Below are positions 22,229-28,817 of a DNA stretch of 64,000 nt, one piece after another. Position numbers and translations under genes: made by a program. Position 1 is the stretch's first letter. Each line of letters opens with the position of its first letter. The stretch is from Escherichia phage T4_ev151, in sequence record LR597660, one strand, 5' to 3'. The notes beneath the pieces are model-generated. The model saw only the letters and a program-made list of their open reading frames with translations, had not been told where the DNA came from and did not search any database.

Positions 22229-23323
22229 ATGGCAATTGTTAAAGAAATAACTACTGATTTAATTAAAAAGTCCGGTGAGAAAATTTCAGCCGGACAGAGC
22301 ACTAAATCAGAAGTAGTAACTAAAACATACACTGCCCAGTTTCCAACTGGGCGTGCTAGTGGTAATGACACTACAGGGGACTTCCAGGTAACAGATCTAT
22401 ATAAGAATGGATTATTATTTACTGCATACAATATGTCATCTAGGGATTCTGGAAGTCTTAGAACGATGAGATCTAACTACTCTTCTTCATCTTCGAGTAT
22501 TTTACGTACAGCCAGAAACACTATCAGTAGTACAGTATCAAAACTATCAAATGGATTAATATCAAATAATAATTCAGGAACAATAAGTAAAGCTCCTGTC
22601 GCAAACATTCTTTTACCGAGATCTAAATCTGATGTTGACACATCATCACATAGATTTAATGATGTTCAAGAAAGTCTTATCAGCAGAGGCGGAGGTACTG
22701 CTACTGGTGTGCTAAGTAATGTTGCTTCAACCGCAGTATTTGGGGCACTGGAAAGTATAACACAAGGTATAATGGCTGATAATAATGAACAGATTTATAC
22801 GACAGCCAGAAGTATGTATGGTGGTGCTGAAAATAGAACTAAAGTGTTTACATGGGATTTGACTCCACGTTCAACAGAAGATTTAATGGCTATTATTAAT
22901 ATCTATCAATATTTTAACTATTTTTCTTATGGTGAAACAGGTAAATCTCAACACACTGCTGAAATAAAGGGGTATTTAGATGATTGGTATCGTTCTACGT
23001 TAATTGAACCTTTATCTCCGGAAGACGCAGCTAAAAATAAAACACTATTTGAGAAAATGACAGCAAGTTTAACGAACGTTCTTGTAGTTTCAAACCCGAC
23101 AGTTTGGATGGTGAAAAACTTTGGTGCAACATCTAAGTTTGATGGAAAAACGGAAATATTTGGTCCATGCCAAATACAGAGCATTAGATTTGATAAAACA
23201 CCTAATGGTAACTTTAACGGATTAGCTATTGCTCCAAACCTCCCTAGTACATTTACTCTCGAGATTACTATGAGAGAAATTATCACGTTAAACCGTGCTT
23301 CTTTATATGCGGGGACTTTTTAA
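22229..23323 (+). CDS. 48: Baseplate tail tube cap gp48
   Basis: 364 aa, same length as T4 gp48. Confidence 0.9.
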   Translation: MAIVKEITTDLIKKSGEKISAGQSTKSEVVTKTYTAQFPTGRASGNDTTGDFQVTDLYKNGLLFTAYNMSSRDSGSLRTMRSNYSSSSSSILRTARNTISSTVSKLSNGLISNNNSGTISKAPVANILLPRSKSDVDTSSHRFNDVQESLISRGGGTATGVLSNVASTAVFGALESITQGIMADNNEQIYTTARSMYGGAENRTKVFTWDLTPRSTEDLMAIINIYQYFNYFSYGETGKSQHTAEIKGYLDDWYRSTLIEPLSPEDAAKNKTLFEKMTASLTNVLVVSNPTVWMVKNFGATSKFDGKTEIFGPCQIQSIRFDKTPNGNFNGLAIAPNLPSTFTLEITMREIITLNRASLYAGTF

Positions 23324-24288
23324 TGTATTCTTTAGAGGAATTTAATAATCAAGCAATAAACGCAGATTTCCAACGTAATAATATGTTTAGCTGCGTTTTT
23401 GCAACAACTCCATCAACTAAAAGCTCTTCGTTGATAAGTTCAATTAGCAACTTTTCTTATAATAACTTGGGCCTAAATTCAGATTGGTTAGGATTAACTC
23501 AAGGCGATATTAATCAGGGAATTACCACGCTAATTACAGCTGGCACACAAAAACTGATAAGAAAATCAGGGGTTAGTAAATATCTTATTGGTGCCATGAG
23601 TCAACGTACAGTTCAAAGTTTATTAGGCTCATTTACAGTTGGTACATATTTAATTGACTTCTTTAACATGGCATATAACTCATCTGGATTGATGATATAC
23701 TCTGTAAAAATGCCAGAGAATAGATTATCCTATGAAACTGACTGGAACTATAATTCTCCTAATATTCGTATAACTGGGAGAGAATTAGACCCTTTGGTTA
23801 TTTCATTTAGAATGGATTCAGAAGCTTGTAACTATCGTGCAATGCAAGACTGGGTTAACTCTGTTCAAGACCCAGTAACTGGATTGCGTGCTTTGCCACA
23901 AGATGTCGAGGCAGATATTCAGGTTAATCTTCATTCTCGCAATGGATTACCTCATACTGCGGTGATGTTCACTGGATGCATTCCAGTGTCAGTGAGCGCT
24001 CCTGAGTTATCATATGATGGAGATAACCAAATAACTACATTTGATGTTACTTTTGCGTATAGAGTGATGCAGGCTGGAGCAGTTGATAGGCAAGCTGCGC
24101 TTGAATGGCTTGAATCTGCTGCTATAAATGGTATTCAAAGCGTTCTTGGAAATAGTGGAGGTGTTACTGGACTATCTAATTCGCTTTCACGACTTAGTAG
24201 ATTAGGAGGGACTGCAGGAAGCATTTCAAACATTAATACTATGACAGGGATTGTCAATTCGCAAAGTAAAATATTAGGAGCAATATAA
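23323..24288 (+). CDS. 54: Baseplate tail tube initiator gp54
   Basis: 321 aa (T4 gp54 is about 320 aa); start overlaps the gp48 stop. Confidence 0.9.
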   Translation: MYSLEEFNNQAINADFQRNNMFSCVFATTPSTKSSSLISSISNFSYNNLGLNSDWLGLTQGDINQGITTLITAGTQKLIRKSGVSKYLIGAMSQRTVQSLLGSFTVGTYLIDFFNMAYNSSGLMIYSVKMPENRLSYETDWNYNSPNIRITGRELDPLVISFRMDSEACNYRAMQDWVNSVQDPVTGLRALPQDVEADIQVNLHSRNGLPHTAVMFTGCIPVSVSAPELSYDGDNQITTFDVTFAYRVMQAGAVDRQAALEWLESAAINGIQSVLGNSGGVTGLSNSLSRLSRLGGTAGSISNINTMTGIVNSQSKILGAI

Positions 24289-24292
24289 CAAT

Positions 24293-24321
24293 GGGGACCT
24301 TTCGGTCCCCATATTTTTATT
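24293..24321 (+). terminator. Rho-independent terminator after gene 54
   Basis: GGGGACC-TTTC-GGTCCCC hairpin (24293-24310) followed by ATATTTTTATTT. Confidence 0.8.
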
Positions 24322-24607
24322 TACGGAATGAAATGAAAGCAGAAACTGAAGCAACTAAACTGTCTTCAATATAAACTTCAATTTTTACCGGAGCTTCTGA
24401 CTCAAATTTACCTGTTACTACACCCTGAAAAATACTTTCAGTTTGTTCTGGCTTTGAAAAATTTTCAGAAGGAAAAATTCCGAACTTTTTATCTGTTCCA
24501 AAAATTTTAATAAATTCATCGTAAACTGCTTCATTAAAAGCATTATCAGCAGGAATAACGCCTTCAACTACAAGTTCTTGACCCAAAAAGCGCAAAGAAG
24601 ATTTCAT
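24317..24607 (-). CDS. Hypothetical protein, 96 aa (alt.-3 position)
   Basis: ORF with GAGGA RBS supplied by the 54-bp promoter cassette; MKSSLRFLGQELVVEGVIPADNAF... Confidence 0.6.
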   Translation of the reverse strand: MKSSLRFLGQELVVEGVIPADNAFNEAVYDEFIKIFGTDKKFGIFPSENFSKPEQTESIFQGVVTGKFESEAPVKIEVYIEDSLVASVSAFISFRK

Positions 24608-24614
24608 TTTGTGT

Positions 24615-24668
24615 TCCTCATGTTATGTCAGTAAGACTACTATAACACAACACGAGGGACTTGTAAAC
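24615..24668 (-). repeat. 54-bp exact repeat, copy A: early promoter, leader and Shine-Dalgarno cassette
   Basis: Identical to 38248-38301. Minus strand: GTTTACA (-35), 17-nt spacer, TGtTATAGT (extended -10), leader, GAGGA. Confidence 0.85.
24639..24668 (-). promoter_or_regulatory. Sigma70-type T4 early promoter inside repeat copy A
   Basis: -35 TTTACA (24667-24662), 17-nt spacer, -10 TATAGT (24644-24639) with upstream TG. Confidence 0.65.
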
Positions 24669-24843
24669 TACATTTTGAACTTTTTAGTACGCGTAATAGG
24701 CATGCGTCGATTTTATACTGTTTCATTGTTTGAAGAGCAGTATCAAAAACAGCATTAATGACACCAATTGGATTTCCACCCAAGTTTTTAAGCTTAACTA
24801 ATGATAGTTTCTCATTAACACCTATCATTACGATATGCATCAT
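24640..24843 (-). CDS. Alt N-terminal domain paralogue, distal fragment (alt.-2 position)
   Basis: 67 aa; MMHIVMIGVNEKLSLVKLKNLGGNPIGVINAVFDTALQTMKQYKIDACLLRVLKS aligns with Alt residues ~63-118. Confidence 0.55.
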   Translation of the reverse strand: MMHIVMIGVNEKLSLVKLKNLGGNPIGVINAVFDTALQTMKQYKIDACLLRVLKSSKCSLQVPRVVL

Positions 24844-25025
24844 TTTGTCGCCTGGTTTAACGTTTTATCTGTATCACCGCCAGAGGTGTATGTACAAAAT
24901 CTAAATCCAGGAAGCACGCTTTCTTCGCCGGCTTGAATAGCAAAAATTTGTGGTATTTTATGCTTAGGATTTAAGTTAACAACCGGCGCCGAAGCGCCGT
25001 CAAATAATTCTGTAATAAGTTCCAT
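24840..25025 (-). CDS. Alt N-terminal domain paralogue, proximal fragment (alt.-1 position)
   Basis: 61 aa; MELITELFDGASAPVVNLNPKHKIPQIF...CTYTSGGDT aligns with Alt residues 1-55; RBS AAGGA; stop overlaps the next ATG (ATGA). Confidence 0.6.
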   Translation of the reverse strand: MELITELFDGASAPVVNLNPKHKIPQIFAIQAGEESVLPGFRFCTYTSGGDTDKTLNQATK

Positions 25026-25028
25026 GAT

Positions 25029-27116
25029 TTATCCTTGAACGAACTTGTAAGGCATATTTGTAATATCTATGCAAGACGCAATAATTCCAAGAGATGATTC
25101 TACTTTCTGTTTAACATTTGACGAAACAAATGATGCAAAGTCAACTCTATTTTCTATATAGCCTGTCATTGTAACCAATTCACCAGTTTCCATTAAACGG
25201 TCTCCGTCATAGATTACCGATTCGGTGAGTTCTTCTGTGGTCATAACTTCAGCTTGAATGAGTTTTGTATTATTAGATGTTGTTCCGTCATTATTAGAAG
25301 CATCAGTTATTTTATTAACTTTGACCATCAATCCACGCGGTAGAATAACTTCAGCTTCAGTTGCTATTCCGAGATTTCCTGGATATACAACATTAACTTT
25401 ATGTGCGCCGTCAATAGCCCATCCTATTTGAACTTTAACGTATTCAGGATTTTCTTTATACGCTCTTATTTCGTTTGGATTAATAGTTATTCCTTCTTCA
25501 TTTTTATCAACTGTTAATTCATTGCGAGCTTCTGGTTCTAAAAGACCAATACCAGCATGTGTAATTCCAAAACGTCCAAAAATGATAGGAGTTAAAGAAG
25601 TAGATACAAAATTTCTGAAATAGAATACTTTATTTTTAACTAGTGCTTCGTATATAGGAGCAGTCATACTTTGAGCACGATAAACTGTAATGCCTTCTGG
25701 TATACGATCACCATTTTCAAAAGCATAATCTAAATTAGTTATAGCAGCTTCAATTTCTTTTTCACTCATTACTTCATAACGTTCTGGATCATAACGACCC
25801 AAAAGAAGATTATTGATGTCAGTATACCCTGAACCACAATACTCTCTAATGCCGCGCTTTTGTGATGGAGTATATTTAGAACCATCACGGGCAATAGTAA
25901 TATCAATCATTGGACCTGCACCAATTCCAGAAAAACTATAAATCATTCTTTTGAGGAATTTAGTTTTTGCTGCGTTCCAGGAATTTTTAGTCATTTCTTC
26001 CCAGACTTCATCTGGCTGCCCTTTACGAGTTTTATTATGTTTATCAAGCCAATTATCTTTATATTCTTCAAAGAGTTGATTAACAGCTGCTGCGTATTTC
26101 TCTAAACATTTTATTGAAGTAGTTGGTTCATTTTTAATTGCATTAAAAATTACTTCTTTAATTTTTTCTGAAACTTCACCGACTTGACTCATTGGAAAGA
26201 ATTTATAATCATAGTGAAGTTCATCTGCCGTTCCTTCAGCAATAATTTTTGCTGCCTTTGTTTTAGAAGCTAATGAATTAATTCCAATTTTCATTTCTTC
26301 TGCTTCGGGAATTAAAGGTGCAGTAGCTGGTTTATTAAAATTAGCTGCTGTAGATTCATACTTCTGGAATAATTCACTTTCAAATCTAGAAGATTCCAAT
26401 GATTGACTTTGCGCAATTGCTCTACGGGAAATTTTAACTTTAACGATTACAGCTTGGTCAGAACGTTTATCATTTTCTTGTGCAATAGATGCTGCAATTG
26501 CCTCATTTTTAGTTACTTGAGCTCCAGTATCTTTATTGATGTAAACATCGCCGACTTTCGATTCAACTTTAGTAAAGAGCTCGGTACTAATTTCCGGAAC
26601 TCCTGGAATGTCTTCTAGTGATACATTTTTGCGATGTATAAGAATATATGCATACTTTTTATCATAATCCCAGAGTTCCTTAAGAAGGACGTATCTGCCA
26701 CCTGAACGGCTACGGATAAGTCTATCAGCAATAACTTGAATTTGTCGAGCTTGACCAGCGGTTTTAGACTTAAGAATACGAAGCATACAAGCATCAATTT
26801 TATACTGACGCATTGTTTGCATTGCAACAGTAAAAACTGAATTGATATAATTAATTGGGCTTGGACCAAGACCTTTTAATTTAGCAATTGAACCTTTAGC
26901 AGTTAATGTAAAAGGAACAATGTGCATCATTTTATCGCCCATCTTTAAATCGCGATTAGTATCACCTCCAGATGTATAGGTACATAAACGAAAGCCTGGT
27001 TGTTCAATTGCATCATCAACATGAACTGAAAAAATTTGCGGTATTTTCTTCTTTGGATTTAAGTTTGTAATCGGAAGAGTAGTATCTTCGTCAAATAATT
27101 CTGTAATGAGTTCCAT
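25029..27116 (-). CDS. alt: Alt, virion-packaged ADP-ribosyltransferase
   Basis: 695 aa (T4 Alt is about 682 aa); MELITELFDEDTTLPITNLNPKKKIPQIF... Confidence 0.9.
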   Translation of the reverse strand: MELITELFDEDTTLPITNLNPKKKIPQIFSVHVDDAIEQPGFRLCTYTSGGDTNRDLKMGDKMMHIVPFTLTAKGSIAKLKGLGPSPINYINSVFTVAMQTMRQYKIDACMLRILKSKTAGQARQIQVIADRLIRSRSGGRYVLLKELWDYDKKYAYILIHRKNVSLEDIPGVPEISTELFTKVESKVGDVYINKDTGAQVTKNEAIAASIAQENDKRSDQAVIVKVKISRRAIAQSQSLESSRFESELFQKYESTAANFNKPATAPLIPEAEEMKIGINSLASKTKAAKIIAEGTADELHYDYKFFPMSQVGEVSEKIKEVIFNAIKNEPTTSIKCLEKYAAAVNQLFEEYKDNWLDKHNKTRKGQPDEVWEEMTKNSWNAAKTKFLKRMIYSFSGIGAGPMIDITIARDGSKYTPSQKRGIREYCGSGYTDINNLLLGRYDPERYEVMSEKEIEAAITNLDYAFENGDRIPEGITVYRAQSMTAPIYEALVKNKVFYFRNFVSTSLTPIIFGRFGITHAGIGLLEPEARNELTVDKNEEGITINPNEIRAYKENPEYVKVQIGWAIDGAHKVNVVYPGNLGIATEAEVILPRGLMVKVNKITDASNNDGTTSNNTKLIQAEVMTTEELTESVIYDGDRLMETGELVTMTGYIENRVDFASFVSSNVKQKVESSLGIIASCIDITNMPYKFVQG

Positions 27117-27139
27117 TATATCCTCTCTAGTGTTTATTC

Positions 27140-27147
27140 TATTTATA
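27140..27147 (-). promoter_or_regulatory. Late promoter box TATAAATA on the minus strand upstream of alt
   Basis: Plus TATTTATA at 27140-27147, 24 nt upstream of the alt ATG. Confidence 0.6.
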
Positions 27148-27152
27148 AAATT

Positions 27153-27170
27153 AAAGGCCCGAAGGCCTTT
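27153..27170 (-). terminator. Hairpin terminator between gene 30 region and alt
   Basis: AAAGGCC-CGAA-GGCCTTT palindrome; on the minus strand it is followed by AAUUUUAU. Confidence 0.55.
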
Positions 27171-27357
27171 AATAATCTATTGGTAAGAGAGTACGATATA
27201 TTTCAAACTTTGGACCTTTTTCATAAGCATCAAAAGTTTCTGTGAATTTATTATAAGCATATGCATCTATAAATTCAATCATGATTTGTGATACAGAAGT
27301 AGAAACATCTCCACCTTCTTTTTGAGCCACGACAATTGTTTCTAAGTAAGCTTTCAT
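27169..27357 (-). CDS. Hypothetical protein, 62 aa
   Basis: ATG overlaps the DNA ligase stop (ATGA), suggesting translational coupling. Confidence 0.5.
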   Translation of the reverse strand: MKAYLETIVVAQKEGGDVSTSVSQIMIEFIDAYAYNKFTETFDAYEKGPKFEIYRTLLPIDY

Positions 27358-28817
27358 AGACCAGTTACCTCATGAAAATCACCAAATACATCTTCGAATG
27401 TATTAGCTTTAGTTTTATCTTCACGTAAACGAATCGCAATCGGAAGAAATAATTTAACGTAATCAGTGCGGCCATCAGATTTTAACCAACCGTTGCATTC
27501 GCACTCTAGAATTTTTCCAATATAATAATTTTGGTTTTCCATAATGCGAGTACGGTCAAGTTCATGTGATTTTACACCGGCTTTATCTTTTAAGCCTGAA
27601 CCAGCATTCACCTTAATTTTTCCACACTCTGACTCAAGAATAAATCCACCTGCTTTAGTAGGGTCTTTACGGTGAGGATAAATTCCTACAATTTTTAAAT
27701 CAACATCAATTACTTCTTTAAATTTATAGAGATTTTTTGAACGAGCATTTTCCCATAATCCATCGATATTTTTGAGAATAATACCTTCAAGACCTTGGTC
27801 AATATACTTTTTATAAATTACCTTAGCTTCATCTAGGTTATTTACTACTTGGTTTTCAATTAAAATTACTTTATCATAACCTGATGTCATTTGTTCTAAT
27901 TTAGAAAAACGGACATCATATTTCAAACGAAATGTAGGAAGACCGTATATTTCTATCAACGGTACATAATCCCAGACCTGAAACTTCATGCATTGTGCTT
28001 CTTTTTCAGAAATTGTTCCCTTTAAAGATTTATTGGCGATGCCATTAGAAGCAGTACGTGATTCAGCTACTTCGGCGAATTCTTTAGCTTTACTATTTTC
28101 AGGATAAGCATCAAAAAGAAAATCTAGGCCTTCTGGCTCCTTTTTAACTTGCTCATGGTATACCAATTCGCCATCAATTAACACACCTTCTGGATGAATC
28201 TGGCGGGCTTCAGCGGTCATTTTGATTAACTCTTCCTTAAGAAGATCTAATCCTAGGTATTCATTACCAGCTCGTGATAAAAGACGAACATCATCTAATT
28301 CATCACCTCTGACTTCAGCAAAGCACCGAGCCCCATCAGCTTTTAACTGGGCAAAGGCTGGAAATTTGATATTCTTATTAATGCCTTTTTCATCATAAGA
28401 ACTTGCAAGCATTTGAGGTTGTTCAGGAATTAAACCTGGCCAAACTTTGTTTGCAATAGATACTGAAGCACCACATTCAAGGTCTCGCATCATCACTCGA
28501 CGCAAAACTTCAACATCATCTTTTTTACCATCGGTGATATATCCAGTTAATTCCTCAATTGCTGCATTTCCAGTCAATTTCCGAGTAGCTAACGTGAATT
28601 CAATAAAATCAAGCATATCGGTAAGAGTCAACATTCCAAAACTCTGGGTAGCAATACCAGGTTTAGGCCATTTCTTGATATAATACTGTAACCCACGAGA
28701 ATAAGTCAGACGATATACTCGTTTAAGCAATTCATTATCTTTATTCTTTTCAAGAATTGCTTGCTTCTGCTTAGTTGAACCAATAGATGCTATTTCGTTC
28801 AGAATTTTAAGAATCAT
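27354..28817 (-). CDS. 30: ATP-dependent DNA ligase gp30
   Basis: 487 aa, same length as T4 DNA ligase; adenylation lysine motif in ...FAQLKADGARCF... Confidence 0.95.
   Translation of the reverse strand: MILKILNEIASIGSTKQKQAILEKNKDNELLKRVYRLTYSRGLQYYIKKWPKPGIATQSFGMLTLTDMLDFIEFTLATRKLTGNAAIEELTGYITDGKKDDVEVLRRVMMRDLECGASVSIANKVWPGLIPEQPQMLASSYDEKGINKNIKFPAFAQLKADGARCFAEVRGDELDDVRLLSRAGNEYLGLDLLKEELIKMTAEARQIHPEGVLIDGELVYHEQVKKEPEGLDFLFDAYPENSKAKEFAEVAESRTASNGIANKSLKGTISEKEAQCMKFQVWDYVPLIEIYGLPTFRLKYDVRFSKLEQMTSGYDKVILIENQVVNNLDEAKVIYKKYIDQGLEGIILKNIDGLWENARSKNLYKFKEVIDVDLKIVGIYPHRKDPTKAGGFILESECGKIKVNAGSGLKDKAGVKSHELDRTRIMENQNYYIGKILECECNGWLKSDGRTDYVKLFLPIAIRLREDKTKANTFEDVFGDFHEVTGL

Follow-up and report, generated by a model that had tools for sequence, protein, structure and literature searches.

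The alt.-1 and alt.-2 reading frames of a T4-type phage are very probably the 5' remnant of a second alt-type ADP-ribosyltransferase gene

The window analyzed here is a stretch of 64,000 nucleotides from Escherichia phage T4_ev151 (sequence record LR597660), in which two short minus-strand ORFs, alt.-1 and alt.-2, lie between alt and alt.-3 (Table 1). The alt gene encodes an intact packaged ADP-ribosyltransferase that served as the comparison reference, and alt.-3 is a functional neighbor outside the region under study. A megablast search with positions 24300-27400 retrieved 543 phage records, all T4-like, with a top identity of 97.7%. With a 695-aa Alt and no record above 97.7% identity over this 3.1-kb region, the window phage is distinct from T4; to judge from the sequence, the window is a Tequatrovirus (T4-type) segment from a relative of T4. 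Three plus-strand ORFs overlapping the two small genes (24609-24758, 24758-24904, and 24835-24936) were rejected as unsupported antisense by-products. The 62-aa ORF that lies between alt and gp30 bears only the label "hypothetical" in phages CM8 and Lutter.

Table 1. Genes and sequence features at the alt locus of the window (positions are those of the whole stretch).
Feature	Position	Strand	Evidence or remark
gp48	22229-23323	+	
gp54	23323-24288	+	
GC-rich hairpin, perfect 9-bp stem, T-runs on both sides, between convergent 54 and alt.-3	24291-24312		Annotated as terminator in Lutter
alt.-3, 96 aa, DUF5498	24317-24607	-	Pfam PF17602, E 5e-64
alt.-3 early-type promoter: GTTTAC (24663-24668), 18-nt spacer, TATAGT (24639-24644)	24639-24668	-	10/12 match, TG-extended
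alt.-2 ORF, 67 aa	24640-24843	-	PHROG 15247, E 8.8e-50, residues 1-67/67
Probable alt2 stump (whole), 358 nt	24668-25025	-	Alignment with full-length CM8 alt2; repeat mapping
Putative deletion junction, one remaining copy of the 9-bp direct repeat CTAAAAAGT	24679-24687	-	
ATGA overlap (TGA of alt.-1, ATG of alt.-2)	24840-24843	-	
alt.-1 ORF, 61 aa	24840-25025	-	PHROG 23015, E 3.9e-45, residues 1-61/61
A4 run (A5 in intact alt2); 1-nt loss gives the frameshift	24863-24866	-	
alt, 695 aa	25029-27116	-	PF03496 ADPrib_exo_Tox, E 1.3e-35; PHROG 802 Alt-like, E 1.8e-271
Late promoter TATAAATA upstream of alt	27140-27147	-	Promoter annotated at the same place in Lutter
Terminator hairpin ahead of the alt late promoter	27153-27170		
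62-aa ORF between alt and the DNA ligase gene	27169-27357	-	Pfam PF24647 'Phage_blade', E 7.5e-29; PHROG 1976 (unknown function)
DNA ligase gp30	27354-28817	-	

BLASTP against the adjacent Alt aligned the 61-aa ORF with Alt residues 1-62 (36/62 identical, 58%; E 3e-23) and the 67-aa ORF with residues 63-117 (34/55 identical, 62%; E 1e-21), far beyond chance and in the order reported by a preliminary description of the region. The pairwise comparison with alt that this description had proposed was significant at the protein level and colinear at the DNA level, where it is interrupted by one 1-nt gap immediately before AAAATGATG. It had also placed the two halves in different frames joined by an ATGA, where alt reads straight through (...GDKMMHIV...), and this arrangement was borne out. 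Both ORFs additionally match the N-terminal part of the PHROG 802 Alt-like ADP-ribosyltransferase, at positions 2-61 and 64-120. No Pfam domain was found in alt.-1, alt.-2, or the fused 128-aa form, and the catalytic ADPrib_exo_Tox domain with its Arg, Ser-Thr-Ser, and Glu-x-Glu motifs is absent from the region.

The same pair is present in T4 as alt.-1 (NP_049810, P39495) and alt.-2 (NP_049809, P39494), in the gene order gp54 - alt.-3 - alt.-2 - alt.-1 - alt and on the same strand as in NC_000866. The T4 products also have 61 and 67 aa, with the same junction, frameshift, and ATGA, and the 501-nt region is 98.2% identical; only a few substitutions separate the two, such as N17 (AAC) in the window and T17 (ACA) in T4. 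That alt.-1 and alt.-2 are homologous to the beginning of alt is already known and has been on record for about two decades, the T4 GenBank record NC_000866 and Nolan et al. 2006 describing the two together as a duplication of the start of alt. In phage RB32, a long gene at this place is annotated "alt.-2 ... apparent insertion in alt.-2; similar to alt". What is new here is minor: which way the event ran, where exactly the junction lies, in what order the lesions arose, and population evidence for neutrality. Searches of the accessible literature found no functional study of the full-length gene and, beyond Nolan et al. 2006, no description of it as a paralog or of alt.-1/alt.-2 as its deletion product.

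Many relatives carry a longer version of the locus, in which the 3.1-kb query aligned as two pieces spanning ~4.8 kb. Shigella phage CM8 has a second full-length alt-like gene of 685 aa, labeled alt2 hereafter (L001:1869-3926; YP_010076001), that is annotated "Alt-like RNA polymerase ADP-ribosyltransferase", begins 3 nt past the alt stop codon, and finishes just before the alt.-3 promoter. This gene, the RB32 'alt.-2' (YP_803136), and T2 alt2 are syntenic with the alt.-1/alt.-2 region and share its Shine-Dalgarno sequence and the downstream alt.-3 promoter. DNA identity is ~96-97% over the first 348 nt and the last 11 nt of alt2. Unlike alt2, the short region lacks codons 117-680, including the ADP-ribosyltransferase (ART) domain, is frameshifted, and evolves neutrally.

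The alt2 product aligns with Alt over its full length at 41% protein identity, matches Pfam PF03496, and retains the ART signature residues TLYRGQ, FVSTSL, and EAEVILPRG (YR / STS / EAEV). Its ART domain lies at residues ~416-620, within the segment missing from the short region. Alt of T4, the packaged enzyme that ADP-ribosylates RNA polymerase, is a paralog of that region, which covers the N-terminal sixth of Alt without the catalytic domain; over the N-terminal 117 residues the two are ~60% identical, including MELITELFD and DKMMHIV, far below the identity to alt2. Because the region is 96-97% identical to alt2 and ~60% identical in protein to Alt, the divergence from alt probably arose in a functional gene and not during decay.

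A 1551-nt probe from the missing part identified intact alt2 in ~402 records at ≥80% coverage, including T2 and RB32. A 501-nt probe spanning the alt.-1/alt.-2 region was contiguous in ~90 records, including T4 and the window phage, that are in the short state; the others matched its 5' 383 nt only. Intact alt2 is thus ~4.5-fold commoner, and it is also more diverse (pi 4.4% vs 1.7%). An IMG/VR protein-based scan for alt2 gave only three usable intact loci, and a scan of the same resource for the exact deletion junction gave just two contigs. Because these scans returned few loci, the survey was based on individual GenBank phage records, not all ~490. The comparison set comprised 24 short loci (the window, T4, 20 other GenBank phages, and the two IMG/VR contigs) and the 5' 351 nt of nine intact alt2 genes.

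The region is very probably a pseudogene, the 5' stump of the second alt-type ADP-ribosyltransferase gene alt2, with no function of its own. Three hallmarks of a pseudogene are found here: an intact syntenic ortholog in relatives, disabling lesions, and selection that is relaxed compared with the intact gene.

Alignment of the stump with CM8 alt2 gave near-identity over the first ~350 nt and then a jump to the last nucleotides of the gene and the sequence downstream. The stump is composed of alt2 codons 1-116 minus 1 nt, plus the last 11 nt of alt2 including its old TAG (24668-24670). CM8 alt2 contains CTAAAAAGT twice, in phase 0 at nt 340 (codons L-K-S 114-116) and in phase 1 at nt 2039; the stump contains it once. 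The segment between is 1699 bp long (length mod 3 = 1), so its loss puts the sequence beyond it out of frame. Deletion between short direct repeats classically leaves one repeat copy behind, as seen here, and the same junction is present in 24/24 stumps. The alt.-2 ORF consists of alt2 codons 61-116 and an 11-aa out-of-frame tail (SKCSLQVPRVV-L). Past the junction, its frame crosses the old TAG and ends at a TAG (24640-24642) inside the -10 hexamer of the alt.-3 promoter. This promoter thereby overlaps both the old alt2 stop and the present alt.-2 stop. The deletion ends only 11 nt before the -35 element, leaving the promoter intact.

These observations bear on the view taken in the original T4 annotation, in which the first ~350 nt of alt were duplicated and later diverged, acquiring a stop and a new start; the long gene of RB32-type phages would then be an insertion. 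Apart from the notes on alt.-1, alt.-2, and RB32 cited above and Nolan et al. 2006, which speak for it, this order of events is highly improbable. The "inserted" 1699 bp are colinear and homologous with the rest of Alt, including the ART domain, and lie between copies of a 9-bp direct repeat that the stump has once; the tail of the stump is the 3' end of the long gene, out of frame. The divergence from alt is shared with intact alt2, which is under strong purifying selection. The greater frequency and diversity of the intact copies and the nested derived lesions of the stumps also argue against duplication followed by insertion. The "partial duplication of alt" of the preliminary description therefore gives way to a deletion derivative of a full-length, long-diverged paralog.

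The split into two ORFs is located in a run of A's: AATAAAAAC in CM8, SYGD1, and AV119 corresponds to GAT-AAAAC in the window and T4. Intact alt2 reads GAT ACG AAT AAA AAC GTT AAA CCA GGC GAT AAA ATG ATG CAT, and the frame of the window and T4 after loss of an A is AAA ACG TTA AAC CAG GCG ACA AAA TGA. The alt.-1 ORF comprises alt2 codons 1-54 and seven out-of-frame codons, and the TGA of the overlap is created where the shifted frame crosses the ancestral AAA ATG ATG (K60-M61-M62 of alt2). The start ATG of alt.-2 is supplied by the ancestral Met61/Met62 codons (DKMMHIV, also in Alt), and no new start codon is needed. Loss of a single base therefore explains why the frame stops, why it seems to restart, and why the two ORFs overlap in ATGA. 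The frameshift is present in 21/24 independent records, including the T4 reference, and is thus no sequencing artifact of the window. The stumps of SYGD1, AV119, and SG1 have neither the 1-nt frameshift nor the ATGA.

A -1 shift at ...GAT AAA ACG... would exactly restore the ancestral frame, and the SYGD1 stump directly encodes the resulting 128-aa product. Programmed -1 frameshifting or transcriptional slippage at the A-run could in principle yield a functional fused Alt2 fragment, for example one competing with Alt for head incorporation, and the chance of this appears close to nil. There is no X XXY YYZ heptamer at 24860-24872, and U-AAA-A does not fit. Four A's are too few for RNA polymerase slippage. 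An Rfam scan of 24200-27450 (E ≤ 0.1) matched no RNA family or frameshift element, half of the stumps are stopped upstream at codon 6, and the state of the site varies among phages.

Another reading, which develops the two small proteins that the preliminary description had offered beside decay, is that two functional small proteins were retained from the packaging or targeting region of Alt, with Alt.-1 targeted to the head by the Alt propeptide and Alt.-2 made by termination-reinitiation at the ATGA. Both ORFs are open in the window, T4, and several other phages, and RNA from both is present in T4. alt.-1 keeps the alt2 Shine-Dalgarno AAGGA (25032-25036), 6 nt upstream of its ATG, and its N terminus, MELITELFD, is identical to that of Alt, which is processed during head maturation. 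The near-invariance of the N-terminal 117 aa in intact alt2 also implies that this domain matters, in the full-length protein. Even so, the two-protein reading is very unlikely given the lesions, the substitution pattern, and the proteomic data set out below. The ATGA is a by-product of one lost A over ancestral Met codons. A translationally coupled pair would conserve both ORFs and their overlap, but the overlap is absent in three phages and the upstream ORF is reduced to five codons in 15/24.

That reduction is caused by a nonsense allele, E6*, in which alt.-1 codon 6 (window positions 25008-25010) is TAA instead of GAA; it was found in 15/24 stumps. A 62-nt TAA probe matched exactly in at least 45 of ~90 stump records, so at least half of the stump-bearing records are unable to make Alt.-1. 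None of the matches appears to be an intact-alt2 phage, since the annotation under each shows no second Alt-like gene. Counts of the frameshift state from BLAST identity bins were dropped because they are confounded by nearby SNPs, and only E6* was counted by matching.

Further lesions are scattered among the stumps. The LH2 stump has a start codon changed from ATG to GTG, F25 has lost one A from the junction A-run, and the stop is altered in ACG-C40. Independent indels break the alt.-2 ORF in 4/24 stumps, namely a 7-bp tandem duplication in HY03 and an extra -1 in a T-run shared by IME537, CE1, and PD112; the ORF is still open in 19-20/24. Some of the indels lie in homopolymers and may be assembly errors in single records; against this, E6* is a substitution with at least 45 records behind it, and three records share the T-run deletion. 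The SYGD1 stump carries no lesion beyond the deletion and is a single 128-aa ORF. E6* and the frameshift, ~150 bp apart, occur in all four combinations among the 24 stumps (neither in SYGD1, the stop only in AV119 and SG1, the frameshift only in T4 and the window, both in Lutter), which points to recombination between stump alleles or to recurrent mutation.

The substitution pattern separates the stumps from the intact genes. Codons 1-116 of the nine intact alt2 copies carry 40 synonymous changes and one nonsynonymous change (K80R), and the N-terminal 117 aa are almost invariant despite up to 7% DNA divergence; on these counts, intact alt2 is under strong purifying selection. The variants private to stumps number 16 nonsynonymous (N), including nonsense and start-loss changes, to 3 synonymous (S), a fraction indistinguishable from the 78% nonsynonymous expected under neutrality. 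The difference in N/S between stump and intact copies is pronounced in this small sample of 24 versus 9 (Fisher p 1e-10; omega-like ratio ~1.5 vs 0.007). The signal is strong in the alt.-1 half (13 N to 3 S); the alt.-2 half has three private substitutions plus indels, and relaxed selection there rests on few events. The "decaying" copy of the preliminary description is thus upheld by E6*, the indels, and the 16 N to 3 S, but its "two small proteins" are left unsupported, the ORFs being broken across phages.

Expression of the region was considered in relation to its neighbors. A generic sigma-70 scan returned 15 promoter-like sites against 13 in shuffled controls, which is control level; only the alt.-3 promoter and the terminator at 24291-24312 were used from the scan because both coincide with features annotated in phage Lutter. 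The hairpin at 24291-24312 looks like a bidirectional terminator. The promoter/terminator scan found no terminator between alt and this hairpin, which places the stump within the alt transcript. Dual RNA-seq of T4 puts alt, alt.-1, and alt.-2 together in the "middle" RNA class (PMC9697503). Proteomics from the same study covered 85% of T4 proteins and assigned Alt.-1 and Alt.-2 a Class_P of NA (not detected) (PMC9697503 Tables S2, S3); the Alt.-1 (P39495) row has zero LFQ in 24/24 samples, with Alt and Alt.-3 clearly quantified. The preliminary description had suggested a search for the two peptides in such proteomes, and neither Alt.-1 nor Alt.-2 is detected in the published T4 data; proteins of 61-67 aa (6-7 kDa) are easily missed, so this result is supportive, not decisive. 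A peptide unique to Alt.-1 is IPQIFAIQAGEESVLPGFR, and one unique to Alt.-2 is NLGGNPIGVINAVFDTALQTMK. Alt.-3 is abundant in the T4 proteome and of early class for both RNA and protein (PMC9697503), and alt.-3 is the site of C-terminal-extension mutations by which T4 escapes the CmdTAC defense system (PMC11618068).

The N-terminal propeptide of Alt, its first 6-7 residues, is removed during head maturation (PMC9026906). Since the window retains AAGGA and the gp21-type MELITE|L site, a transient Alt.-1 peptide is plausible in the window phage; nothing indicates selection for it. It is quite unlikely that, in phages with an open alt.-1, Alt.-1 serves as a small internal peptide or as a competitor that adjusts the amount of Alt packaged, or that repeated spread of the alt2 deletion was adaptive and not a matter of drift. 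Under the first of these ideas, late expression from the alt transcript could supply Alt.-1, whose propeptide sequence would bring it into the prohead core, with processing by gp21 to follow; under the second, some host defense may sense the lost ADP-ribosyltransferase.

For the pseudogene, we envisage the following course of events. The whole of alt would have been duplicated in tandem long ago, giving alt and alt2, and purifying selection would have kept both copies as they diverged to 41% protein identity. In the T4-type lineage, slippage or illegitimate recombination between the CTAAAAAGT copies then removed 1699 bp, so that codons 117-680 with the whole catalytic domain were lost and codon 116 was fused out of frame to the last 11 nt. 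The 128-aa ORF of SYGD1 still represents this stage, before loss of the A. Loss of one A from the A5 at codons 54-55 then brought the frame onto TGA, with old Met codons mimicking an ATGA-coupled start. The stump is probably transcribed passively, as a part of the late transcript from alt that precedes the alt.-3 terminator. Since then it has drifted, and phages differ in the nonsense, start-loss, indel, and nonsynonymous changes that have accumulated. The duplication and the passive transcription are inferred; sequence comparison shows the deletion, the loss of the A, and the drift.

Beyond cleaner annotation, the finding is of little consequence. The event now runs the other way: most of a second Alt-type ADP-ribosyltransferase, kept by T2, RB32, and ~80% of sequenced Tequatroviruses, has been lost in T4. 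In annotation, "pseudogene fragment" is a better label for alt.-1 and alt.-2 (PHROG 23015 and 15247) than hypothetical protein or "ADP-ribosyltransferase". The model phage T4 is itself a natural knock-out of alt2, and the function of this putative fourth T-even ART-family protein, recognized as such from its motifs, is therefore to be studied in T2/RB32-type phages.

Two further observations concern variation at the locus. The 501-nt stump probe has a match in Yersinia phage PST (KF208315.1) on its alt.-3 side alone (query 1-128), so in some T4-like phages alt2 may be wholly absent or replaced instead of being reduced to a stump. The main alt gene is annotated as unusually short in HY03 (645 nt; L006 777-1108) and Pu-Krd-SF5 (885 nt; L022 520-601), and elsewhere its length is 2049, 2055, 2088, or 2094 nt, depending on the phage; assembly errors are one possible cause of the short and variable annotations, and decay with indel polymorphism in alt itself is another.
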